Source: an uncultured Gammaproteobacteria bacterium (GTDB taxonomy: Bacteria > Pseudomonadota > Gammaproteobacteria > UBA9214). From it: a DNA stretch of 64,000 nt. Position numbers and translations under genes: made by a program. Positions 1,591 to 18,955 of the stretch are shown here, one piece after another. The notes under the pieces are model-generated. The model saw only the letters and a list, made by a program, of their open reading frames with translations, made no database searches and was not told where the DNA came from. How positions within the stretch are numbered: the stretch's first letter is position 1; every line of letters begins with the position of its first letter. Where the stretch lies: contig CAVYZN010000021.1 in the NCBI GenBank assembly GCA_963773065.1, forward strand, positions 9,110 through 73,109. Reading direction: 5' to 3'.

Positions 1591-1610
1591 GGATAGGGAA
1601 AGGGCGCAGC

Positions 1611-2866
1611 ATGGCGAAAACCCATTCACGGGTGCTATCCGGAATGCGTCCCACCGGGCGCCTGCACCTCGGCCACTATCATGGCGTCCTCAAGAACTGG
1701 GTCAGGTTGCAGCAGGAATTCGACTGTTTCTTCTTCGTGGCCGACTGGCATGCGCTCACCACGCACTACGAGGAATCGCACATCATCGCCGAGAGCGTCT
1801 GGGACATGGTGATCGACTGGCTGGCGGCGGGCGTCGACCCGGAGTCCGCGCAGTTGTTCATCCAGTCGCACGTACCGGAGCACGCCGAGCTGCATCTGCT
1901 GCTTTCCATGGTGACGCCGCTCGGCTGGCTGGAACGGGTGCCGAGCTACAAGGACCAGCAGGAAAAGCTGCGGGAACGGGATCTCGCCACCTACGGCTTT
2001 CTCGGTTATCCGCTGCTGCAGAGCGCCGACATCCTCATCTACGGGGCCGACAAGGTGCCGGTCGGCGAGGACCAGGTGGCCCATGTCGAGCTGACCCGCG
2101 AGGTGGCGCGGCGCTTCAACCATATCTTCGGGCGTGAACCGGGTTTTGAGGAGGCCGCCGAGACCGCCATCAGAAAGATGGGCAAGAAGAACGCGCGCCT
2201 CTACCATGACCTGCGCAAACGCTACCAGGAGCAGGGGGAACGCGAGGCGGTGGCGGTGGCGCAAGCCCTGCTTGAGGAACAGCAGAACCTTTCCCACAGC
2301 GACCGCGAACGCCTGCTCGGGTATCTCGAGGGCAGCGGTCGGCATGATCCTGACCGAGCCGCAGGCCCTGCTCACGCCGGCCTCCCGCATGCCCGGCCTG
2401 GACGGACAGAAGATGTCCAAGTCCTACCACAACACCATCACCCTGCGGGAAAACCCGGAGGATGTCCGGCAAAAATTGCGCACCATGCCGACCGACCCGG
2501 CGCGCATACGCCGCACCGATGCCGGGAACCCCGATGTCTGCCCGGTATGGCAACTGCATGCGGTTTATTCCGATGAGGCCGTGAAGGCGCTGGGTGCGGG
2601 AGGGCTGCACCACGGCCGGGATCGGTTGTCTGGAATGCAAGCAGCCCATCATCGACAGCATACTCGGCGAACTCGCGCCCCTGCAGGAACGGGCGCGGGA
2701 GTACGAACAGGACAGGGATCGGGTGCGCGCCATCATCGCGGAAGGATGCGAGGCCGCCCGCGCCGTCGCCCGCGAAACGCTGGCAGAGGTGCGCGCCGTC
2801 ATGGGGCTGGATTACTCGCCGAAGAACCTGATAGGAAATCGAGACATCCCTTCGAAACTGGGTTAG
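1611..2866 (+). CDS. trpS: Tryptophan-tRNA ligase (two frameshifts near 2340 and 2590, probably sequencing errors)
   Basis: SGMRPTGRLHLGH (HIGH-like), GYPLLQSADIL, VPVGEDQ, KMSKS in the next frame, GCLECKQP in a third frame. Confidence 0.9.
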
Positions 2867-5680: not shown

Positions 5681-6445
5681 TCACTCCACGGTGAACTGCC
5701 GGCCGCTGATGCCCCGGCTGTCCGTCGAGAGCAGATACAGGAACGGCCTGAGCACCTCGTCCGCCGTTCTGAGCCGGCTCCGGTCCTCGGCCGGATAGGC
5801 GATCAGGCGCAACGCCGTGCGCACGGCGCCCGGGTCGATGCTGTTGGCGCGCACCGGTGTATTGGCTTCCAGTTCATCGGCCAGGATCTGCATCATGTTC
5901 TCCAGCCCGGCCTTGGCGATGCCATAGGCGCCCCAGTACGCCTTGCCGCGGCGCCCCGCGGCATCGGAGGTGAAGATGATGGAGGCATCGTCTTCGCAGC
6001 GGGTCATCAGTTCCAGACAGGCCCGGGTCAGCAGATAGGGCGCGTTGAGGTTGATCTGCATGACCTGGTGCCAGAGCTCGTCATCGAAATGCGCCAGCGG
6101 GGTCAGCGCGCCGAGCAGGGCCGCATTGTGTACCAGCCCGTGCAGCCGCCCGAATTCCCGTTCGAGGGTATGGGCGAGCGCGGCGTAGTCCTGCGCTGTC
6201 GCGCCCTGCAGGTCCAGCGGGTAGAGCGCGGGTTCCGGGTGCCCCGCCGCCAGGATTTCATCGTAGGTCTGTTCCAGCCCGCGCACGTTGCGGTCCAGCA
6301 TGACGACCGTCGCGCCGTGTCTCGCGCAGGCGCGCGCGAGCGCCCGGCCGATCCCGTCGGCGGCGCCCGTGACCAGTACGATCCTGCCGGCAAGCAAATC
6401 GGCGGCGGGTTCCCAGTCGCGGGGTGGTTGGTGATCAGCGGTCAT
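5681..6445 (-). CDS. yciK: YciK-family short-chain dehydrogenase/reductase
   Basis: TGAADGIG, AYWGAYGIAK (YxxxK), HNAALLG; start at ATG 6445 with TATAAT 10 nt upstream. Confidence 0.88.
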   Translation of the reverse strand: MTADHQPPRDWEPAADLLAGRIVLVTGAADGIGRALARACARHGATVVMLDRNVRGLEQTYDEILAAGHPEPALYPLDLQGATAQDYAALAHTLEREFGRLHGLVHNAALLGALTPLAHFDDELWHQVMQINLNAPYLLTRACLELMTRCEDDASIIFTSDAAGRRGKAYWGAYGIAKAGLENMMQILADELEANTPVRANSIDPGAVRTALRLIAYPAEDRSRLRTADEVLRPFLYLLSTDSRGISGRQFTVE

Positions 6446-6492
6446 GAGGGCGCCGATTATACCGGGGAATATCCCCTTCCCGATAACCCGGA

Positions 6493-6622
6493 TGTCCGTC
6501 CATAAAGAAATAAACTCACCGCAAAGGCGCGAAGAACGCAAAGCCGTTTAATTGTTTTTGTTAATATGTCTTCTTCGCGAACTTTGCGTCTTTGCGGTGA
6601 AAATGGTGTTTATGGATGGACG
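6493..6622 (-). repeat. Palindromic MITE-like repeat, copy 2 (complete, terminal inverted repeats)
   Basis: TGTCCGTCCATAAA ... TTTATGGATGGACG termini plus internal CACCGCAAAG...CTTTGCGGTG arms. Confidence 0.85.
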
Positions 6623-6651
6623 TAGTGACACGATATGGTTGGATTGTGGCG

Positions 6652-7296
6652 ATGCTAGACGATATCCCGCTGTTTTCCGATCTCGATGCGGCCGAGCTCG
6701 CGTTGTTGTCCAGCAAGGCGGTGACCCGGCAGTACCCGCGCAACACGATCATCATCAATGAGGGTGATCGCAGCGATTCCCTGTATATCATCCGCTCGGG
6801 CAGCGTAAAGGTCTTTCTGAGCGATGCCGACGGCAGGGAAGTGATTCTGAACGTTCAGGGACCCGGCGAGTATTTCGGTGAACTGGCGTTGATCGACATC
6901 GGTCCGAGATCGGCCTCCGTCATCACGCAGGATAAAGCCACGCTGTCACTCATTTCGAAGTCGGATTTCGAGGATTTCATGCGACAGCACCCGGCGGCCA
7001 CCGTCAAGATCATGCGCGGCATGGTCAAGCGGCTGCGGGCGCTGACGGAGAGTGTGAGAAGCCTGGCCCTGATGGACGTCTACGGCCGGGTCGCCGGTCT
7101 GCTGCTCAAGCTCTCGAAGCCCGAGGGGGATATCCGGGTGATCAGGGATCCCTTGACCCAGCAGGATATCGCCGACCGGGTGGGCGCCTCCCGCGAGATG
7201 GTGAGCCGCATCCTCAAGGATCTGAAGGCCGGCGGCTATATCGAGATTCACGACCGGCAGATCACCATCCGGGAGCGGCTGCCGCACGGCTGGTAG
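6652..7296 (+). CDS. Crp/Fnr family cNMP-binding transcriptional regulator
   Basis: Phosphate-binding cassette FGELALIDIGPRSA; HTH LTQQDIADRVGASREMVSRIL. Confidence 0.93.
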   Translation: MLDDIPLFSDLDAAELALLSSKAVTRQYPRNTIIINEGDRSDSLYIIRSGSVKVFLSDADGREVILNVQGPGEYFGELALIDIGPRSASVITQDKATLSLISKSDFEDFMRQHPAATVKIMRGMVKRLRALTESVRSLALMDVYGRVAGLLLKLSKPEGDIRVIRDPLTQQDIADRVGASREMVSRILKDLKAGGYIEIHDRQITIRERLPHGW

Positions 7297-7348
7297 TCAG
7301 GACGGCGTCGGCGTCCGCTGCCGGCAGCGGTTTTCCCTCAACCGCCGG

Positions 7349-7552
7349 TTAAGTGCATATCTTGACCCAGCCAGTTCCCGTCCAGACGTAAATGCAGCCG
7401 GGACTCTGCTTGGTGGCGATGATCGCCGAGGCCCAGGCGTGTGGCGGTTGCGGGGCATCCATGCTGTGTTTCCCTAGAGGTGATGTCACCTCGACCACCT
7501 TGCCCTCTTCATCGAGGTGAAACTCGACCGGAATGGTTTCTCTTATTGCCAT
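7349..7552 (-). CDS. 67-aa small protein with C-terminal Cys-x12-Cys aromatic loop
   Basis: Strong RBS AAGGGAGGA before ATG; fills the gap between crp and the receptor gene; ends SPGCIYVWTGTGWVKICT. Confidence 0.7.
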   Translation of the reverse strand: MAIRETIPVEFHLDEEGKVVEVTSPLGKHSMDAPQPPHAWASAIIATKQSPGCIYVWTGTGWVKICT

Positions 7553-7774
7553 GATGATTCCTCCCTTCTGATTTTGCGCCCATGGCGTTCCCGTTGCGCG
7601 GGTCCGCCTGTTACACGGTGGCAGGCAGATACCACCGATTCTGAATCCTCACGTTTATCGTTCAGACGGGCATGGCCGTCATCGAGAATCCGAAACCCGG
7701 CGCCATGACGGCCTGACAATCTCCCCACGAATCATTCACGAGACCGCCATCCGTGTCCCTTTGCTATCCGCCAT

Positions 7775-10700
7775 TCAGAATGACAGGGTCAGGCGTGTGA
7801 AGAAAAACCGTTCCGGATAGATGCGCGGGTTGAAGGGATCGGTATCCACGAACTTGAACTTTCTCATCGAGCAGGTTGCTCACCCCGGCGCTGATGAACC
7901 CGTAGCGCTTCGGCAGCCGGTAACCGACCGTGGCATCCACCAGCCAGAACTGGTCGTTCTTGTCTTCGTCGGCACGTTGGCGAGGAACCCCGGCCCCGCG
8001 GTGGAAAATTCGCCCTGCTGGTCGATGTACGTCGTCCGCAAGTGGGCGAAGTAGCCGAGGGGATGAAAATAGCTGACGGTCAGCGGCACCCGCTGGGTCT
8101 GGATTTGGGTGGCCTGGAATTCGCCGGTGAAGGACTGCTCCCGCTTGAAGTCCTCATACTGGTATTCCGCGCTCGCCGCCACGCGCCGGGTGGGCGTCCA
8201 GTACAGATAGGCGCGCCCGAAGCCCTCGTCCCAGTTGACCTCATCGGGATCGCCGTCGATCAGGGGTACTTGCGTGTCACGCCAGCGGTATTCCACGCCG
8301 CCGGAAACATCGGCGGTAAACACCTGATCGGCCGCCAGTCCATAGACGATGGCCTTGGTGCCGAACGGATCGTCGTAGAACTGGTTGAATCCCGCCACCT
8401 GGGTCGGCTCGATCGTCTGGCTGCTGGAGAGGCTGCGGGTGATGGTCCGAAATGCCGCGGCGCGCAGCGTGGTGTTTCCCTCGCCTGCCAGGTGAGGCCG
8501 AGCTTCGGATTGAGCTTCTGGACGCCGATGTGGGATTGTCTCGGCGGGCAGCGGCACGCCATTGGCCGTGTTCTTGCTGGTTTGATCCTCTCCGAGGTCG
8601 TCATAACTCGCGCCCGCCGTGACCAGCAGCGTATCGCCGTAGGGAATGTTGGCATAGCTATAAACGTTTTTGTGATCCTTGTTCTGATCCCGGTCTGGAA
8701 TCGACGTTTGAGGCGGGAAACACCGGCGGCGTGAAGGTGGTGTCGGCGGTGGAAGGCAGCTTGCCGTCACCGGTGAAATAGCCCGCCCCGCTCACCAGCC
8801 TGAACGAGGCGCCATGGTAGAGGTGCTGGATCTCCGTGGTATTGCCGTTCTGGTGTTGTTCGAGATTGACGTTGGTATTCGCGGTCACTGGCGGCAGACC
8901 GGGGATCGGAGGCAGGTCCTGGGGTACGGAGGTGTCGAGGTTGAAGTCCCAGTCATGCAGGGTGATGAACGAGGCGATGATTTCCGAGCGCGGCGTGAAT
9001 TCATGGTGCAGGCCGAGCCGCATGGTCTCGGCCGTGGTCTTCTCGCGCTGGGTAGGCAGGAAATCATCCGGCTCGAAGCGCTGTACCAGATCGCCGTTCT
9101 TGATCCGCCGGTCGCGGTATTCGGCCTGTACGCTGGTCTGGTAGCTGAGCGCGCCCTGAACGAAGAGATCGTAGATGTCCTGGTCCTGGTCGTTGTTGTC
9201 GCGGAAGCCGTCGCTCTGGTAGTGGAACTGGCCGGCGCTCCAGGACCAGTTGTTGTACACGCCGTTTTGCACCACGTCATCGCCCCAGGTGCTGTTGCTG
9301 CCGGCGAGGCCGTCGGCCTGCAGGGCGAGGCGGTTGCGCGTGAACAGCGGATTGAACTCCAGGTAGGCGGGATCGGCCGGACCGGCGCCTTCCAGGATGA
9401 ACAGGTTCTCCTCCGCGAGCTGCGGCGGCACCGGGGTCAGGTTGATCGGCTGCAGGAGCTGGGACTGCAGCAGTTCGCTCACGCGGGCGATCTCGTGGCG
9501 GGGCAGGACGGAATAGCTGTCCGCGAGCAGCCGGTGGGCCGAGTAATTGGCGGGGTCGGTGTTGACCGACTGCCAGCCCTTCACCAGCGCCAGCTGCTCG
9601 AAACCGAGGTCGCTGTAGATGCGCGCCTGGCTGGCGCTGCGGGTGGCCAGATCCTCGTCGAGCTGCAGGCGCGAGCGGTACACGGCGCGGTTGTCGTTGA
9701 GCGCGATGGAGGTCTGCATGTCGTGCAGCGCCTCGACCGGGCGGTTTTCGGTCTGCTTGCGGATGGCGTCATAGAACCACGGCGTCGGGTCCTTGGGGTC
9801 GAGCGTCTTGGCCATCTCGTACTGGGTCCCCGCCAGCCGGTCGCGCTTCTCCTCGTAGTAGGCCTTGCCCATGTAGCTGCGGATCAGGGAACTGGCGGGA
9901 TCGAGCGCCACCGCGATTTCGATGGCTTCCCGGCCCGCCGCCAGCTCGCCTTTGCGGATCTGCGCCAGACCCAGCCCCAGGCGGGGCAGGGGCGCCGCCT
10001 GATCGAGAGCGATGGCTTCATCGAAGGCGCTCAGGGCCTGCGGTATTTTGATCTGAGTGAGGTAGGCGTAACCGCGCACGGTCTGGGTCAGAGCCAGTCG
10101 CGGCTCGATGCTGCTGGCCCGTTCCGCCGCCGCCAGTCCCTCATCCAGATAGCCCAGCGAAAGCCGCAGCTCCGCGAGACGCGCCCAGGCGAGGGCATCG
10201 TCGGGATTGTCGCGCACGGCGCTCTGCAGGCTCTCCAGCGCGCCGGCGAGATCGAAGGATCGCCTGCTGGACATAGGACATCGCGATCCGCGCCGCGGCG
10301 GAGGCGGGCCGGGCGGTGACGGCGCGCTGCGCCAGTTCCCGTGCGGATGCCGTGTCGTTCTGGGTCAGGGCGATGATGGACTGCAGCGCCAGCGCCTCGC
10401 TGTTGTCGGGGTCCTGCGCGAGCACCTGGGCCAGATACGCCCGCGCCTCATCGACCCGGCCCACGGCCAGGGCCTGCGCGGCCTGTTGCAGCGGAGCGTT
10501 GAGGCTTTCGGTGGCGGAGAGCACCGGCGGATAATACAGGGTCCATTGCACGGCATCGCGCGGGCGGACCACGGCTTCGGTGATCGGGGCCTGGCCGGCC
10601 TGGGCCACGGCGCGCTGATTGGCGCCGACCTGCACGCTGCCCGCCGGGTTGCTGACCTGCACCTGGCCTTCGTAGACGATGACGCCGGTTTCGCCCTCAT

Positions 10701-11175
10701 CGACTTGCACCAGGAACTCCGTGCCGGTGATGGCGGCGTTGGCGAGCGGGGTGATGATCTGCAGTGACCGCGGATCGCGGCTGATGAAGTGCGCGGCTCC
10801 CTTGAGCAGTTCGAGCCAGGAGGGCGCGGTGTCGGTTTCCGCCGCGGTGAAGACCAGCGAACTGTACTGATCGAGACGGATCACGGTTTCCGGATAGAAC
10901 AATATGGCCGCACGGCTGTTCCCGCCGGTGCGCACGGCATCACCCGGACAGAAGCGTTCATCCCGGCCGGCGGTCTGCCATTGCTGATCCCGGGCGCGTT
11001 TGACCTCCAGCGTACCCTGCACGGAGATGGCGCGCGCCAGCGCCGGATCACACGGTTGCGCCGCGGCCAGGAGCTGCGAGGGGATGGTCAGCGCATAAAG
11101 GATAAAGAGGTGAAGCAGACGGGCTTTGAGCGGAAATACCGCGTGTGAAAAAAATATGTTGTTCCCGATTGGCAT
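7775..11175 (-). CDS. FecR-domain/TPR/TonB-type beta-barrel outer-membrane receptor (NsrA-like); split by several frameshifts
   Basis: Signal peptide, FecR (GDAVRTGGNSRA, TPLANAAITGTEF), TPRs, DNRAVYRSRLQLDEDLA, barrel strands, C-terminal ...TRLTLSF*; pieces at 10141-11226, 8658-10274, 7880-8770. Confidence 0.82.
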
Positions 11176-11435
11176 CTTCTTGGTTGGCAATGACGTGCCC
11201 GGTGGCTGACGTGCGCCGGTCCGCACATGGCTTGATCGATCAGGACCGCGATGTAATCACACGCGTCGCGTTACGGTCCAGCATTTTATCCTGCCACGGC
11301 ATCGAGGGTCGATTTTCTCGGCCTCCTGTATACGTATTTGTACGTAGTCAGACCGGATTGCTACCGAGGCGAGTTCCGGGATGGGCATGCCGGCTAACGA
11401 GTGTGCCGTTAGGCCGCTTGCACATGGATGGGCAA

Positions 11436-11535
11436 GCGGTCCGGGATGGGCAGGACTGCCCGAAGCGACGTGCGGCACCCGTAGCCTACAGGGCCGGTAT
11501 TCACGGCGTGTTCCGGCAAGCCCATCCCGGACCGC
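11436..11535. repeat. Perfect 16-bp inverted repeat between the cyclase and receptor genes
   Basis: GCGGTCCGGGATGGGC (11436-11451) and GCCCATCCCGGACCGC (11520-11535). Confidence 0.75.
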
Positions 11536-11556
11536 GTGGCATGACTCGTGATGCTC

Positions 11557-13812
11557 TTAGTCTGTGCCGTCAAGCCGTATGACGCCGTTCCAGTCATCGG
11601 CAGGCGGGTCCTGCCGATGGCGCAGGGAGAGATCCAGATAAAAGCGTGATACGCCATCGCCCTCACGGGTATTCACCAGTTGCGTGAACCGCTCGATGGC
11701 GGTTTTCCAGTCCGCCTGCCGGAACGCCGTGAGACCCTCGGCGAACAGTCCGTGCCGTTGCGTGATGGCCTGTTCCTCGATGGATTCACGCCGTCCGGCA
11801 AGCTCGTGTATCACCAGCGGGCGGGTTTTGCCACGCAGCAGAAACGTCCCGACCTCACGGGTCAGAAAGCCATCGATGCCCTCCAGGACTTCCTGTGACA
11901 GGAGCACCCGCGTTCCGAGCACCTTGTTCAGTCCCTGTATCCGGCTGGCGGAATTCACGATGTCGCCCACGGCGCGGTATTCATAATGATCGATCGCGCC
12001 GATGCTTCCCAGCAGGATTTCGCCGCTGTGCAGACCGAGCCGTGTGGCATGAACCCGCGGTGTATCCCGTTGACTCGACCGATTGAGGGTCTCGTCGATC
12101 TGCCGGGCCGCCTCGATGGCATGCCGGCGCATGGCGTGCTCCGGTGTGTGGGACGCCCAGATGGCCAGCATGGCGTCGCCGACGATATCCGAGATGATGC
12201 CCTCCTGCTCCCTGACCGGCTGGAACAGCGACTCGTAGTAGTTGTTCATCAGTCCGGCCAGCGCTTCCGGCGCCAGGCCTTCCGAGAGCCGGGTGTAATG
12301 CTCGGCATCCGAATACAGACAGGTGCCGTACATCAACTGGCCTTCCGCCCGGCCATCGGCCAGATCACCGGCCAGCCGGTCGACGACTGGGGAGGGCAGG
12401 TAATAGCCGAAGGCGGTGCGGATGTTTTCCCGTTCCCGGCGCACCTCCAGGTAATGCCAAAGCGTCGCGCTGAACAGGGCGAACGGCGCCTGCAGGAACA
12501 GCGGCACCATCAGGGGCGGCCAGAGGGCGGAATGACTGAAGGCGACATGGCCTGCGCCGAGATAGAGACCGGCGAGACCAAGCGTAGCGGCCACGGCGGG
12601 AAATACCGGCAACAGGCGGGCGACGGCGCCGATGAGCAGACCCCAGGCGAATAACAGGAGGAAACCGGCCGGTCTGGGCAGCGGCGTGACCGGCAGGTTC
12701 TCCAGCAGGTTGGCGAACGCCGTGGCGGCGATTTCAACGCCGCTCAGATGCACGCCGTTTTTTTGTGAGTAGACCGTATAGAATTCATCCAGCCGCTCCG
12801 GCTGCAGGCGCTCCGAATAGCCCACGAAAACCGCCTTGCCGCGCAGGTCGAGGGCCTCCTGAGCGTGCGATGACTTCGCCTCCGGGCGCAATACCCGGAC
12901 ATAGGAGAGTGTGGTTATCGACTGCGGCGGGCCGTAATAGTTGAGGTAGCGGCTGTCGCCGCCGCCGTACATGCCGATGAGCGCGCGCAGCAGGCGAAGC
13001 TTTCGTGCGCTGATGCGCTGCTGCGCTTCATCGGCCAGCGTCTCCGTCAGGCGCTGCGCCAGCGCCGGCTCTTCCCTGAAAACGGCCCGCAATGCCTGCA
13101 TGGAGGTGATGGCCTCGTGTCCGGCGAATGGGTCGCGCACGGCGCCGGCCGGCGGTGTGTTGCCTGAGCGTGCGTTTTGCTTGATCAGATCCAGCAGATC
13201 GGGATACGCCGTCGCCGCATGGAGCTGCAGGGCGACCAGCGGCAGGGTCGGCAGGTCACCGGTGCCCGGGGTGAAGGTCCAGAACTGACTGACCTTGACC
13301 GGGAAAACCGGTAACGGGAACGGGGCAATCGCCCGCGCCGATGGAGCGATCGACGCGACGGGGAGCACGAGGCGCTGGGCAATCAGTTCACCGGCGGAAT
13401 TTCCGGCCAGCGTGGAGAGCTCCTTTTTGGTGTAGGCAAACAGCACGACATTGCCGGCCTTCCCGATGGCCGACGCGAGCGCCGCGTCATCCCGGGGGTC
13501 ACGCGGTTCCTCGAAGAAGATATCGAGTACGATCACCGACGCGCCGGCCTCGACGAGCCTGTCGATCAACCGTGCGTGATAGGCGCGCGGCCACTTGACC
13601 GGTTCAACGGGCAGGCCAAGCGTGTCGGCGGACGGCTTATCGATGGCGACCACGACCACCTCGGACGGTGGAGTGCGCGGCCCGCGCAGGGTGAAGAGCC
13701 AATCGAGTCCGGCATGTTCCTCGATATCGAGAACGAACGGGATGAGGCTCGTCAGAATTCCCAGGATCCCCGTGAATAATCCCAGCAGGATGGCCTTCGC
13801 CGGTTTGTTCAT
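11557..13812 (-). CDS. CHASE2-domain class III nucleotidyl (adenylate/guanylate-type) cyclase
   Basis: N-terminal TM, CHASE2 (VVVAIDK, WPRAYHA, SGVEIAATAFANLL), three TMs, cyclase YSDAEHYT / VGDA / GDIVNSASRIQG, C-terminal TPR-like tail. Confidence 0.92.
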   Translation of the reverse strand: MNKPAKAILLGLFTGILGILTSLIPFVLDIEEHAGLDWLFTLRGPRTPPSEVVVVAIDKPSADTLGLPVEPVKWPRAYHARLIDRLVEAGASVIVLDIFFEEPRDPRDDAALASAIGKAGNVVLFAYTKKELSTLAGNSAGELIAQRLVLPVASIAPSARAIAPFPLPVFPVKVSQFWTFTPGTGDLPTLPLVALQLHAATAYPDLLDLIKQNARSGNTPPAGAVRDPFAGHEAITSMQALRAVFREEPALAQRLTETLADEAQQRISARKLRLLRALIGMYGGGDSRYLNYYGPPQSITTLSYVRVLRPEAKSSHAQEALDLRGKAVFVGYSERLQPERLDEFYTVYSQKNGVHLSGVEIAATAFANLLENLPVTPLPRPAGFLLLFAWGLLIGAVARLLPVFPAVAATLGLAGLYLGAGHVAFSHSALWPPLMVPLFLQAPFALFSATLWHYLEVRRERENIRTAFGYYLPSPVVDRLAGDLADGRAEGQLMYGTCLYSDAEHYTRLSEGLAPEALAGLMNNYYESLFQPVREQEGIISDIVGDAMLAIWASHTPEHAMRRHAIEAARQIDETLNRSSQRDTPRVHATRLGLHSGEILLGSIGAIDHYEYRAVGDIVNSASRIQGLNKVLGTRVLLSQEVLEGIDGFLTREVGTFLLRGKTRPLVIHELAGRRESIEEQAITQRHGLFAEGLTAFRQADWKTAIERFTQLVNTREGDGVSRFYLDLSLRHRQDPPADDWNGVIRLDGTD

Positions 13813-13943
13813 GGAGGCGGTGGTCGGTATCCTGGCTGAAGGGGAGGTGACTATTCTATGCCATGGAGTTCACCGGCGAACAGCGGCGCGGTGAGGGGCC
13901 GCCGGCGGGGATGGTCAGATAGAATCGCCGGTCGGCTACTTAG

Positions 13944-14265: not shown

Positions 14266-15090
14266 TCAGTCGGATTGATCTTCTTGGAGATGCAGGGACT
14301 GACTGATATCAATCAGAACCTCTTCCGGCCGGTTGTTATTGCACGCATACACCATGCGCACCAGGTCCGGCAGGGAGGTCACCCCCATCTTTCGCATTAT
14401 CTTCGATCGATGGATTTCGACGGTTCGGCTGCTCAATCCCAATTGTTCCGCAAGATTTTTGTTCGAGACGCCGCTTATGAGGTATGTCATCACTTCCCGT
14501 TCGCGGGGTGTCAACCGCTCATATTTCTTCTCCAGTGTCTGGCGACGCCTGCGTTCCTCTTGCTCGGCGCTCGCCAGCAACATGGCATTCCCGACGCTGT
14601 TCTGAAGCTGCTTGTTCGTGAACGGTTTCTCGATGAAATCAAGCGCCCCCCCTTTGATCGCCAGCACGGATTTTTCCACATTCCCATAGCCGCTGATGAA
14701 AATGGTCTTCAGTCCGATGCCGCGTTTCCTCAGCTCAGCCTGCAACTCCAGACCGGATATGTCTCCCATGTTCAGGTCCAGGATGAGAACGCCTGTGGTC
14801 GCTTCGCTGACTGAGGCAAGCAGGGATTCGGCGGAGGCAAATGGCATGACCGTGTAATCCGCGTTTTCAAACAAGAGGGTTAATGCATGGCACACCGCCG
14901 AGTCATCATCGACGATGTAGATGGTTCGACACCCCTCTCCCACAGGGGGAGGCTGGCTGGAAGCGGATGGTATATCCCCTTTTGTTTGGTTAGTCATGCG
15001 GCGATTCCACCCTCTGCTTGCCGGTAATGAAGGGCCATCCCTGGCAGTCATCCATGACGCATCCCTCAACCTTGAAATTAGCTGAAACAC
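14266..15090 (-). CDS. FixJ/NarL-type response regulator (REC + LuxR HTH)
   Basis: IVDDD, LILDLNM, DFIEKP, LTPREREVM...SSRTVEIHRSKIMRKM; GTG start with AAGGAGG RBS (alternative start 14997). Confidence 0.9.
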   Translation of the reverse strand: MFQLISRLRDASWMTARDGPSLPASRGWNRRMTNQTKGDIPSASSQPPPVGEGCRTIYIVDDDSAVCHALTLLFENADYTVMPFASAESLLASVSEATTGVLILDLNMGDISGLELQAELRKRGIGLKTIFISGYGNVEKSVLAIKGGALDFIEKPFTNKQLQNSVGNAMLLASAEQEERRRRQTLEKKYERLTPREREVMTYLISGVSNKNLAEQLGLSSRTVEIHRSKIMRKMGVTSLPDLVRMVYACNNNRPEEVLIDISQSLHLQEDQSD

Positions 15091-15261: not shown

Positions 15262-15936
15262 TCATCTCCATCCATTGACGCGGGCGAGCCAGTCGAGCAG
15301 TTCCTGCGGCGTGCGGATCATGCCGTCGGCATGCCATTCATGCGGCCGATCCTGCTCCTGGAAATAGCCGAACAGCGCCACCAGGGTGTGCATCCCGGCG
15401 TTCCTGCCGGCTTCGATATCGCGCTGCGCGTCGCCGACATAGACGCATTGTTCCGGTTTGCTGCCGGCCTGCTCGCAGGCATGGAGCATCGGAGCCGGGT
15501 GCGGCTTGCGATTTGCCAGGGTATCGCCGCTGACGATAGAGGCGGCGCGTTCGAAAAGGCCGAGGTTCTTCAGCAGGGGTTCGGTCAGCCAGCCTGGCTT
15601 GTTGGTGACCACGCCCCAGTTGAGGCCGCGGCGTTCCAGTTGGTCGAGCAATTCACCCATGCCGGGGAAGGGCCGCGTCTTGCTGGATATATTCTCGCGG
15701 TATAGCGCCAGCAGACGCAGGCGCAGCGGATTGAAATCCGGGTGGGATTCATCCAGCGCGAAACCGAGCCGGATCAGCGCCATTCCGCCGTGGGAGACGA
15801 CCCCCCGGATTTCCTGAAAGGAGAGCGGCGGGCGGTGATTTTCGGCCAGCACGGCATTGAGCGCGTCGGCGAGGTCCGGGGCGGTATCGAGCAGCGTGCC
15901 ATCCAGGTCAAACAGCACGGTGCGTACGGTGTGCAT
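15262..15936 (-). CDS. gph: Phosphoglycolate phosphatase (HAD family, Gph/MupP-like)
   Basis: FDLDGTLLDTAPD, VVTNKP, KPHPAP, VGDAQRDIEAG; downstream of ubiG. Confidence 0.88.
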   Translation of the reverse strand: MHTVRTVLFDLDGTLLDTAPDLADALNAVLAENHRPPLSFQEIRGVVSHGGMALIRLGFALDESHPDFNPLRLRLLALYRENISSKTRPFPGMGELLDQLERRGLNWGVVTNKPGWLTEPLLKNLGLFERAASIVSGDTLANRKPHPAPMLHACEQAGSKPEQCVYVGDAQRDIEAGRNAGMHTLVALFGYFQEQDRPHEWHADGMIRTPQELLDWLARVNGWR

Positions 15937-15955
15937 CGCTTGCTTTGCCGCCCGG

Positions 15956-16666
15956 TCAGTTCTGCTCGAAGCAGGCGAGATAATTGACGGAGACATCCGT
16001 ACCGAGACGGTACTCGCGGGTCAGGGGATTGTAGCTCATGCCCGTCAGGTCGATGATCCGCAGCCCGGCGTGGCGTGCCCAGCCTTCCATTTCCGAGGGC
16101 CGGATGAACTTGCCGTATTCGTGGGTGCCCCTGGGCAGGAGTTTCAGCAGATATTCCGCGCCGACCACCGCGAAGAGATAGGCTTTGGGGTTGCGATTGA
16201 TGGTTGACAGGAATACCCGCCCGTCGTCCCTGATCAGCCTGGCGCAGGCCGCGATGACCGCCGCGGGGTCGGGAACGTGTTCCAGCATTTCGAGACAGGT
16301 GACGATATCGAAGCCGCCGGGCTCCTCCTCGGCCAGTTGTTCCGGGGTGGCCTGCCGGTAGTCGATCTCCAGATTCGATTCGAGCCGGTGCAGCCGGGCC
16401 ACGTTGAGCGGCGCCCGTCCCATGTCGATGCCGATAACCTCGGCGCCGCACTGCGCCATGGCCTCGCTCAGCAAACCGCCGCCGCAGCCGACATCGAGAA
16501 CGCGTTTCCCCCGTAGGTTCGCCAGTCTGTCGATATAGCCCAGGCGCAGGGGATTGATGTCATGCAGCGGTTTGAATTCGCTATTCGGGTCCCACCAGCG
16601 CGCGGCCAGTTTCTCGAACTTGGCGATTTCTTCCTGATCGACGTTGGCAATCTTCCCGGTCATCAT
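15956..16666 (-). CDS. ubiG: Ubiquinone biosynthesis O-methyltransferase
   Basis: EIAKFEKLAARWWD, LHDINPLR, LDVGCGGG, EMLEHVPDP. Confidence 0.96.
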   Translation of the reverse strand: MMTGKIANVDQEEIAKFEKLAARWWDPNSEFKPLHDINPLRLGYIDRLANLRGKRVLDVGCGGGLLSEAMAQCGAEVIGIDMGRAPLNVARLHRLESNLEIDYRQATPEQLAEEEPGGFDIVTCLEMLEHVPDPAAVIAACARLIRDDGRVFLSTINRNPKAYLFAVVGAEYLLKLLPRGTHEYGKFIRPSEMEGWARHAGLRIIDLTGMSYNPLTREYRLGTDVSVNYLACFEQN

Positions 16667-16711
16667 AGTGCTTGTATCCGGTGGTGTGACGCGCCGATGC
16701 GAGCTTGCCAG

Positions 16712-18001
16712 TCATCGCGCCCGGTAGAGGATCTCATGAATGTCCAGCGTGGTCAGTTGGCGCTCCTTCAGCAGGTGTTGACCCGCGACCCACACATCGG
16801 TCACCTGATTGCGTCCGCAGGCATAGACCAGTTGTGAAACCGGATCATACAGGGGCTGTGTTTCGATGGTATCGAGACATATGGCGGCCATGTCCGCCCA
16901 TTTGCCGGGCGTGAGGGAGCCGGTTTCCTCACCGAGTCCCAGGGCCACGGCGCCATTCAGCGTCGCCATTTTCAGCACCGCGTGCGCGGGCAGGGCACTG
17001 GCATCCCCGCCGACGACCTTGGCGAGCAAGGCGGCCGAGCGCATCTCTCCGATCATATCCAGATCATTGTTGCTGGCGGGACCATCCGTACCGAGCGCGA
17101 TGTTTACCCCGGACCCGGCCAGTTCCGCCACCGCGCAGAATCCGCTGGCCAGCTTCATGTTGGATTCCGGACAGTGGACGATGTGGCCGCCGCCGCCGGC
17201 AAAATCGAGGATTTCCTCCCGCGTAAGCTGGGTCATGTGTACGGCCATCAGAGCCGGCGATACCAGGCCGAGGTCCCGCAGCCGCGCGAGCGGTCGCTCG
17301 CCGGTCGATTCCACGGCCTTGCGGATCTCTTCCACGGTTTCGTGCACATGCATGTGGATGCCGATGTCCAGTTCATCGGCCAGCACGCGGATGCGTTGCA
17401 GCGGACCGTCGGATACCGTATAGGGCGCGTGCGGAGCGAACGCGGTGCGGATTAACGGGTCGCCGCGGTAATGATCGTGCACCGCCAGGCCCTTGGAAAG
17501 GTATTCATCGGCATCCTGCGCCCAGACCGTCGGGAAATCGATCACGATGAGTCCGACGCAGGCGCGCATGCCGCAGTGGGCGGCGACACGGGCCGTTACA
17601 TCCGGGAAATAATACATGTCGTTGAAACAGGTCGTGCCGCCGCGCAGCATCTCGGCGATGGCGAGACGGCTGCCGTCGTGTACGAATTCCTCGTTGACCC
17701 AGCGCGATTCCGCGGGCCAGATATGGTTGTTCAGCCATTCATTCAGCGGCAGATCATCCGCGAGTCCGCGCAGCAGGGACATGGCGGCGTGGGTATGGGC
17801 GTTGACCAGGCCCGGGATCAGGAGATGCCGGTCGAGGTCATGCTCGATGGCGGCGTTGTAGGCCGCGCGCGCCTGATCCGTTGGCAGGATAGCCAGCACC
17901 CGTCCTTCATGGACGGCGAGGCTGTGGTAGTCGTAGACGCAGTTGTCCGGTTCTACCGGAACGATCCAGCGTGCATGGATAAGGGTGTCGATGGTCTGCA
18001 T
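16712..18001 (-). CDS. mtaD: MTA/SAH deaminase (TRZ/ATZ amidohydrolase); last residues likely cut by an indel
   Basis: PGLVNAHTH, HMHVHET, HCPESNMKLASG, LGTDGPASNN; DWQARI continues in another frame. Confidence 0.85.
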   Translation of the reverse strand: MQTIDTLIHARWIVPVEPDNCVYDYHSLAVHEGRVLAILPTDQARAAYNAAIEHDLDRHLLIPGLVNAHTHAAMSLLRGLADDLPLNEWLNNHIWPAESRWVNEEFVHDGSRLAIAEMLRGGTTCFNDMYYFPDVTARVAAHCGMRACVGLIVIDFPTVWAQDADEYLSKGLAVHDHYRGDPLIRTAFAPHAPYTVSDGPLQRIRVLADELDIGIHMHVHETVEEIRKAVESTGERPLARLRDLGLVSPALMAVHMTQLTREEILDFAGGGGHIVHCPESNMKLASGFCAVAELAGSGVNIALGTDGPASNNDLDMIGEMRSAALLAKVVGGDASALPAHAVLKMATLNGAVALGLGEETGSLTPGKWADMAAICLDTIETQPLYDPVSQLVYACGRNQVTDVWVAGQHLLKERQLTTLDIHEILYRAR

Positions 18002-18197: not shown

Positions 18198-18825
18198 TTA
18201 CTTCGGCTGTTCTACGCCGACGCTGATTTCCACGCGGCGGTTCTCGGCGCGGCCTGCGGCGGTCTTGTTGGAGGCGACCGGATCGGCTTCACCCATGCCC
18301 TTGGCGTCAATGATGCCCGGGTCTACGCCTTCGCTGACCATGTAGTCCTTGACGGCATTGGCGCGACGGATGGACAACTGCTGATTGTATGCATCCGTGC
18401 CGACGCTGTCCGTGTAGCCGACGACTTTGATATCGATCACCTTGGCCTTGCTGGCCTTGATTTCCGCATCGATGATCATGAATGGCCTGCTTGCCTGCGG
18501 GCTTGAGTACCGACTTGTCGAAATCAAACAGGGCGGTAGCCGATAAGGTGTGCTTTGTGTAGGCAGGAACGGGCGGTGGCGGCGGCGCGGGCGGCGCTTC
18601 CGTCACTTCCGGGAACAGTTCCGGGTTGCATTCCTTGGTCGCCAGTTCCTTGGTCCATTCCGAGGTCATGACGCAGCGACCCTGACTGTCGATGACGTAA
18701 TGCTTGTTGCTGTCACCGACATAGGCATCATTCGCCGTGCCACCTTCGTGGGCCATCGCGATGCCGGCCATCAGTACCGACGAGGCGGCTACACCCAGCA
18801 TAGTTGTAAGACAGATTTTGTTCAT
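18198..18825 (-). CDS. ompA: OmpA/RmpM family peptidoglycan-binding outer-membrane protein (frameshift near 18480)
   Basis: Signal peptide, Cys pair, Pro-rich linker, LFDFDKSVLK, VGYTDSVGTDAYNQQLSIRRA, NRRVEI. Confidence 0.85.
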
Positions 18826-18955
18826 TGAATACCGCTCCTGTGATTTGTGAACGATTAACCCGAACTCCGGTGGCGGTATTTTAGACACATCTCTTTTATA
18901 AGGCTAGTGGTTTTGCGGTGTTTTTGTGTAACAAAATTCGCGTAGAATCACCCGC

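Follow-up and report, generated by a model that had tools for sequence, protein, structure and literature searches.

We analyzed a 64-kb stretch of DNA (hereafter, the window; G+C content ~63%) from contig CAVYZN010000021.1 of an uncultured gammaproteobacterium, and conclude that it probably encodes a trans-envelope signalling module of the kind formed by NsrA, CyaK and Clr in Sinorhizobium meliloti. The genes in question encode an outer-membrane receptor composed of FecR, tetratricopeptide repeats (TPRs) and a barrel, a CHASE2-containing class III nucleotidyl cyclase, a small all-beta protein, and a Crp-family, cyclic-nucleotide-dependent transcription factor. A first-pass annotation, made from the sequence alone, had described the cyclase, receptor and small genes as co-oriented and convergent with the crp gene, and every part that it named was found among the open reading frames (ORFs) and by Pfam. 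The conclusion is carried by the domain make-up of the receptor, by its homology to NsrA and by the linkage of its gene to cyclase genes across phyla; the cyclase, in addition, has unusual base-specifying residues.

Receptor and cyclase

The receptor gene (7775-11175, minus strand) is present as three large ORF pieces, which were recognized using Pfam and tblastn. The N-terminal piece starts with a signal peptide (a hydrophobic N-terminus ending AAA/Q) and contains a FecR domain (PF04773, 7.2e-17) and TPRs; the middle piece contains TPRs; and the last piece terminates with RLTLSF, the final Phe included, which we take to be a typical outer-membrane beta-signal. When longer proteins were searched with the middle piece, several thousand full-length relatives of ~1,100-1,150 amino acids (aa) were found. 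Among the matches listed, TPR families are found in all, FecR in nearly all and the TonB-dependent-receptor barrel in most, and the closest relative is 86% identical. The window receptor has a signal peptide followed by FecR, central TPRs, a barrel and a CHASE2 cyclase as the neighbor, as expected of an NsrA-type outer-membrane receptor.

For modelling and for the comparison with NsrA, we used an intact ortholog of 1118 aa (P0001) from the genome G001, which belongs to the same genus. Pfam places FecR at residues 66-160 of P0001, followed by TPRs and by TonB_dep_Rec_b-barrel (2.3e-12). The AlphaFold2 model (18-row alignment, mean pLDDT 66.4, pTM 0.45) consists of a signal helix, a beta-rich FecR region (34-188), ~18 helices (211-560) and 22 strands (602-1117). 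When this model was compared to the PDB with Foldseek, the top matches were FoxA, FecA, FpvA and FhuA (E ~1e-13, TM-score ~0.5 on target), and TPR superhelices matched its middle part; the Plug family was not detected by Pfam in P0001 or in the window receptor pieces. The receptor is therefore modelled as a plug-less, transporter-type barrel with FecR and TPRs in the periplasm. Conservation within the receptor family is highest in the part that connects the TPRs to the barrel, at residues ~447-600 of P0001 (window ~9400-9850); this stretch includes DPTPWFYDAIRKQTENRPVEAL... and ...SELLQSQLLQPINLTP..., and could serve as a plug or latch.

A tblastn search with P0001 finds pSymB of S. meliloti and, where an annotation is available, the matched gene is nsrA. 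The BLASTP comparison of the two proteins is significant over the FecR domain (34% identity, E 4e-18) and over the TPRs (27% identity, E 1e-11), and the order of the receptor domains is the same, so the parallel to NsrA, CyaK and Clr that had been drawn at the start is borne out.

The cyclase (11557-13812, minus strand, 751 aa; Pfam CHASE2 1.2e-34, Guanylate_cyc 4.8e-10) has an N-terminal transmembrane segment, a periplasmic CHASE2 domain, a transmembrane bundle and a cytoplasmic cyclase domain, with hydrophobic segments 5-31 and 380-419 flanking the CHASE2 region. It is an intact single frame in four genomes of the same genus (76-84% identity). In the alignment with CyaK, the transmembrane and cyclase part is 29% identical, and the start of CHASE2 is 38% identical.

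Linkage of the genes across phyla

A scan of species-representative genomes with the receptor alignment confirmed at least 556 relatives, and the best 80 of these at least 556 were taken as survey loci. All ORFs of the 80 loci were searched with hidden Markov models (HMMs) built from sequences of this analysis. The loci come from Gammaproteobacteria, Thermodesulfobacteriota, Nitrospirota, Brocadia, Acidobacteriota and others.

A CHASE2 cyclase gene lies directly upstream of the receptor gene, on the same strand, in 44 of the 59 loci with at least 2.4 kb of upstream sequence, and elsewhere in the locus in another 8 of these 59. Of the 70 loci that extend at least 450 nt beyond the receptor gene, 34 encode the small protein immediately downstream. 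A Crp homolog is adjacent (E<=1e-40) in 15 of the 80 loci; in the gammaproteobacterial relatives it lies downstream and is convergent, and in others, four Nitrospirota loci among them, it lies upstream and is divergent. A FixJ-like gene, which also had been counted in the block, is the immediate upstream neighbor of the cyclase gene in five loci only (L035, L036, L037, L039 and L040), all among the closest gammaproteobacterial loci. It follows from these linkage values that the core of the module is the cyclase plus the receptor, that Crp is a frequent, movable addition, and that the FixJ-like gene, although present in the window, is a lineage-specific neighbor outside the core. Consequently, the expected co-occurrence of four genes is found for the cyclase, receptor and small protein, but only in part for Crp.

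Closer relatives retain the arrangement of the window. In two genomes of the same genus, G001 and G002, the full order is mtaD-ubiG-(gph)-fixJ-cyclase-receptor-small gene-crp (convergent)-yciK, with no match to gph in G001. The contig of G003 ends inside the receptor gene and that of G004 just after the cyclase gene, and the order agrees up to these points; in G022, a genome of another genus, the block occupies the same place. It should be noted that in G004, after the cyclase gene at the contig end (G004:C425:7798-8052, locus L016), the C-terminal 85 residues of the cyclase are encoded once more with 87% identity, which is either a duplication or an assembly artefact.

A small Cys/Trp-tailed protein

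The small gene (7349-7552, minus strand) has GGGAGG 7 nt upstream and encodes 67 aa with a conserved Cys/Trp tail. Its family, as found by word-based and exhaustive searches, is restricted to 10 close clusters (67-96% identity) and, out of 1.84 billion proteins, 13 representatives. All close members share the tail, TK-x-SPGC-x-Y-x-W-x4-W-x2-IC, with two invariant Cys residues. The protein matched no Pfam or NCBIfam family and no PDB fold (Foldseek, best E 1.7), and the ESM Atlas scores were all <0.9. The model (39-row alignment, pLDDT 75.7) is a six-strand all-beta unit, and the sequence has neither a hydrophobic segment nor a signal peptide, the highest 19-residue hydropathy being 0.66.

In many phyla represented in the 80 loci, receptor genes are directly followed by ORFs of 60-130 aa that have this kind of tail. 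An HMM of the tail was built from 28 such downstream ORFs, which match it by construction, and was run on 7,423 small ORFs of the 80 loci. At E<=1 there were 40 matches. Of these, 35 immediately follow the receptor gene on its own strand; the other five are in the same loci, also on the strand of the receptor, and one of the five is just upstream of the cyclase gene. Members of the family were also found in G022 and, in a longer form, in G015. We conclude that the small protein is a real third conserved component of the module, most likely an accessory subunit or modulator. Several distant members (L043, L046, L056 and L064) start with a signal-peptide or lipoprotein-like sequence, unlike the window copy, which hints that in some lineages the family may be active outside the cytoplasm.

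Base-specifying residues of the cyclase

Residues of the cyclase were assigned by alignment with Pseudomonas aeruginosa CyaB (PDB 3R5G) and CyaK. The catalytic residues are intact, namely metal-binding D502 and D546, N620 and R624. The position of the adenine-specifying Lys, before the second metal Asp motif, is taken by Asp542, which also differs from the Glu of the guanylate cyclase types. Arg613, seven residues before the Asn, is at the position of Asp/Thr in adenylate cyclases and of Cys/Ser/Gly in guanylate cyclases. The six-residue spacing equals that of Cya2 in the table of PMC6005667. In the same review, ATP is assigned to the base-specifying pair Lys-Asp/Thr and GTP to Glu-Cys/Ser, and Glu-Gly is listed for Cya2, which is CHASE2-linked; Asp/Asn-Arg matches none of these three, although no literature search was aimed at that pair.

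The unusual pair is shared by most of the clade. Among the 49 receptor-adjacent cyclases of the survey, Asp/Arg is found in 24 and Asn/Arg in 15, and none has Lys at the first position. Glu-Gly occurs in only two survey cyclases (L088 and L101), neither adjacent to a receptor gene. Three CHASE2 cyclases from the same bacterial family with Lys-Thr have no receptor gene in the stretch fetched; the cyclase of G015 is also Lys-Thr, and its gene does have those of a receptor and a Crp as neighbors.

A circuit based on cyclic AMP (cAMP) is not supported, the cyclase lacking the adenine-specifying Lys-Asp/Thr pair. A carboxylate or amide together with a guanidinium would suit guanine, and our guess for the product is cyclic GMP (cGMP). 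Non-canonical pairs in some mycobacterial enzymes still yield cAMP. Tentatively, and without regarding it as probable, we propose that the messenger produced by the CHASE2 clade devoid of the ATP pair is not cAMP but, most plausibly, cGMP, which would be read by the clade's own Crp, and that the small protein would be an obligatory subunit gating or tuning the receptor.

The Crp regulator and noncoding elements

The Crp-family protein (6616-7296, plus strand, 226 aa; Pfam cNMP_binding 1.6e-26, HTH_Crp_2 4.9e-17) contains FGELAL...PRSAS and REMVSR, which we take to be the phosphate-binding cassette and the helix-turn-helix (HTH) motif of Crp, respectively, and the claim of an intact cyclic-nucleotide cassette can be maintained. 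The NCBIfam model of CRP (NF008732) gives 135.3 bits versus the cut-off of 266; therefore, the protein is not an equivalog of Escherichia coli CRP. Its best sequence relatives in the PDB are GlxR, mycobacterial CRP and CAP. Orthologs with 84-85% identity are found at the same place in G001 and G002. The first-pass annotation had the gene start at 6652, which is the internal Met13; the orthologs align from residue 11-13, and the true start may be there, but the ORF itself opens at 6616. Crp proteins that accompany Asp/Asn-Arg cyclases have PRSAS in the cassette, and the one Crp that accompanies a Lys-Thr cyclase (G015) has PRAAS. We considered this difference as a sign of the nucleotide preference of Crp and dropped it, one PRAAS case being too few.

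A GC-rich perfect inverted repeat (CCGCTGCC/GGCAGCGG; 7315-7330) separates the stop codons of the small gene and crp, which are convergent, and is likely a two-way terminator stem. The motif TACGTA-N4-TACGTA (11331-11346), located in the spacer between the cyclase and receptor genes, has one match in 64 kb versus 0 expected (100 shuffles), and is aligned and conserved in G001, G002 and G003 of the same genus. It is a candidate regulator site, for which the FixJ-like neighbor is a candidate binder. In the same spacer, an ORF of 73 aa (11257-11478) was dropped from consideration, since relatives lack a counterpart. A ~31-nt block upstream of the cyclase gene (TTCGCC, 16 nt, TAGAAT; 13853-13883, minus strand) is nearly invariant in five genomes of the genus, with the surrounding spacer being unalignable, and may be a promoter.

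Neighborhood of the block

Five genes are located between a yciK-like gene of the short-chain dehydrogenase/reductase (SDR) family (5681-6541, minus strand) and gph, ubiG and mtaD (15262-18001, minus strand), as judged from the ORFs and Pfam. The one of these five not described above is the FixJ-like response regulator gene (14266-15090, minus strand), which encodes a receiver and a LuxR-type HTH (Pfam Response_reg 1.1e-23, GerE 1.6e-21) and scores 183.6 bits with the NCBIfam FixJ model versus the cut-off of 255; no kinase gene lies beside it in the window. The block was said to break the usual order mtaD-ubiG-gph-yciK. The interruption is real, but the order without the block also includes one RmuC-like gene: mtaD-ubiG-gph-(RmuC-like)-yciK is found in 5/5 genomes of the same family and other genera that are free of the block. 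In G020, the RmuC-like gene between gph and yciK encodes 419 aa (L123:5435-6694), and the same gap is occupied in L124-L127. The window has no ORF of this size between gph and yciK, the place being taken by the signalling block.

Neither a phosphodiesterase gene (ORFs and Pfam) nor a Crp box was found in the block, and for these reasons we do not retain the description of the circuit as "complete".

Proposed signal path and points against it

Under the proposed scheme, the outer-membrane barrel would perceive an external, possibly proteinaceous, cue, and the FecR and TPR parts in the periplasm would pass it to the CHASE2 domain of the inner-membrane cyclase. The cyclase would raise the level of a cytoplasmic cyclic nucleotide, not certainly cAMP and possibly cGMP, which the adjacent Crp would read, resulting in changes of transcription. 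The small beta protein, encoded right after the receptor, would act as an accessory subunit or modulator. The complex prediction for CHASE2 (30-380, 42-row alignment) and FecR (57-240 of the N-terminal ORF, 35-row alignment) had a score of 0.00 in both runs, performed without controls, and is neutral with respect to binding.

Several points weigh against this scheme. A CRP-type box (consensus TGTGA-N6-TCACA) with <=2 mismatches was not found in the 5-16 kb region, and the 64 kb contain 11 matches versus 19 expected. The Lys-Asp/Thr pair of adenylate cyclases is replaced by Asp542 and Arg613 in the window cyclase, and CyaK, compared to it, has Lys...Ser instead of Asp...Arg, so that the likeness to CyaK may not extend to the messenger. 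In the survey, no CHASE2 gene was found nearby in 7 of the 59 loci, and there was no match to Crp at E<=1e-40 in 65 of the 80. The receptor model is of only moderate confidence, and its poorly modelled linker (~450-600) coincides with the most conserved stretch of the family. The homology of the barrels of P0001 and NsrA is marginal, with one short BLASTP match (E 0.012), and the gene order is cyclase-receptor in the window versus receptor-cyclase in S. meliloti. To our knowledge, experiments on this receptor family have been limited to S. meliloti.

Alternative explanations

The receptor gene of the window is broken, and it has to be asked whether it is a true pseudogene in a decaying circuit, in which the cyclase, Crp and the small protein persist without outer-membrane input. 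The DNA alignment with the intact same-genus orthologs of G001 and G002, which are single open frames, revealed six 1-bp indels within 3.4 kb: insertions near 10259, 8694, 8538 and 7862, and deletions near 8474 and 7969. These indels are outside long homopolymers, their density is above the average of the compared genes and at the high end even for this assembly, and real decay is possible. However, the orthologs P0001, P0004 and P0006 map along residues 1-1118 on the window in tblastn, split over three frames; apart from the shifts, there are no large deletions or stop-creating substitutions, and the in-frame segments are 78-86% identical to the orthologs, like the intact copy of G002. Furthermore, when 113 genes from a 249-kb stretch of the relative G002 were compared to the whole genome, 24 changed frame in the genome under study, several of them two or three times per ~1 kb. 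One of the 24 is the tryptophanyl-tRNA synthetase gene trpS, which in the window (1596-2863) is split over three frames; an OmpA-like gene of the window (18201-18867) is split over two. The assembly consists of 33 contigs and is 90.9% complete with 6.3% contamination. Because a living cell cannot carry such a load of frameshifts, the six in the receptor gene are very probably assembly errors, and a pseudogene is unlikely; frequent 1-bp indel errors in this assembly would mislead any pseudogene call. The frameshifts, which had been named beforehand as a possible ground for rejecting the circuit, are thus present in the assembly, but they do not lead to its rejection. The receptor ortholog of another genus in G022 (L017, 8202-11392) consists of three abutting tblastn pieces, and may be frameshifted too.

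Two other explanations assign a different role to the small protein. TPRs are combined with a barrel in exporters such as Slam/type 11 secretion and PgaA/BcsC, and the receptor could be mainly a translocon that moves the small protein to the surface, with the cyclase monitoring or regulating the export. The position of the small gene after the barrel gene, its conserved C-terminal tail and the few distant homologs with signal-peptide or lipoprotein-like starts would be explained by such export; however, the window protein and most of its relatives have no hydrophobic N-terminus, the 22-strand barrel is transporter-like rather than of the 14- or 16-strand kind, FecR is a signalling domain in its namesake family, and the homologous NsrA is, by genetic evidence in the excerpted S. 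meliloti literature, a signal-perception protein. We therefore regard the translocon as improbable. The first-pass annotation suggested an autoinduction loop, in which the 67-aa product, processed and released, is the receptor's own ligand. The conserved association between the small and receptor genes, the two invariant Cys residues of the tail, reminiscent of a disulfide-locked hairpin, and the protein nature of the S. meliloti signal, as stated in the same excerpts, are compatible with this. Against it, the small protein lacks a signal peptide; genes for a peptidase, an exporter or a modifying enzyme were found neither in the block nor in the conserved core; the entire protein of 60-110 aa, predicted to be a single six-strand unit, is conserved and not the tail alone; and no such protein was detected at the nsrA-cyaK locus. 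A self-made ligand is very improbable, and this part of the annotation was abandoned. A receptor that signals inward to the cyclase, with the small protein as its partner, continues to be the explanation that we favor.

Significance

CHASE2 is a common bacterial sensor domain, and the rhizobial NsrA-CyaK pair is the only worked example of how it receives its input from the outer membrane; according to the excerpted text of PMC5192318, the cues recognized by CHASE2 were still called unknown in 2016. The NsrA-CyaK design is now seen across many phyla, among them Gammaproteobacteria, Thermodesulfobacteriota, Nitrospirota and Brocadia, and it goes beyond the rhizobial model in two respects, the non-canonical base-specifying pair and the small partner protein. 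This opens a route to two questions, namely what the cyclase makes and how the barrel talks to CHASE2. The value of the window copy itself is limited, as it comes from an uncultured genome with many sequencing frameshifts.

Comparison with known systems

An operon of Burkholderia and P. aeruginosa likewise combines FecR and CHASE2: in the excerpted description (PMC5192318), a secreted LysM-FecR protein is paired with a CHASE2 sensor. The differences, within the same description (PMC5192318), are that the output consists of a kinase and a response regulator, and that the FecR protein has neither TPRs nor a barrel. The recurrence of the pairing in this unrelated operon supports a general partnership of FecR and CHASE2, with the putative contact between the two as the conserved interface.

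In the FecA-FecR-FecI system, as in the window module, a 22-strand, transporter-like barrel and a periplasmic domain of the FecR family signal inward. Unlike in that system, FecR is fused to the barrel via TPRs in the window receptor, and the output is a cyclase, not an extracytoplasmic function (ECF) sigma factor; a plug domain, a TonB box and a signalling extension were not found by Pfam in P0001.

Synechocystis Cya2, a CHASE2-linked guanylate cyclase (PDB 2W01), shares with the window cyclase CHASE2, transmembrane segments, the class III domain and the identical catalytic spacing. Its base-specifying pair departs from Lys-Asp/Thr, as does that of the window clade, being Glu-Gly in Cya2 versus Asp/Asn plus Arg in the clade.

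The closest likeness is to S. meliloti. In the excerpted reports (PMC7529298, PMC13001267), NsrA is an outer-membrane beta-barrel protein needed to perceive a protein-type plant signal, with the barrel at residues 600-1200 (PMC7529298), CyaK and CyaD1/CyaD2 are the cognate CHASE2 cyclases, and Clr is the Crp-type reader (PMC7529298, PMC13001267); together, they form the autoregulation-of-infection pathway. The organisms differ, the window being from an uncultured gammaproteobacterium and S. meliloti being a plant symbiont. On pSymB, nsrA is head-to-tail with cyaK and overlaps its start. The small Cys/Trp-tailed gene accompanies the window module, whereas no such gene was detected next to nsrA-cyaK. 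In the window, crp adjoins the module, whereas the 14.5 kb of pSymB inspected around nsrA-cyaK contain no crp gene; in S. meliloti, clr is chromosomal. In both NsrA (1200 aa) and P0001 (1118 aa), FecR is at residues 66-160, followed by TPRs and by a C-terminal barrel; in both systems, the gene of a CHASE2 class III cyclase adjoins the receptor gene, and a reader of the Crp family is present.

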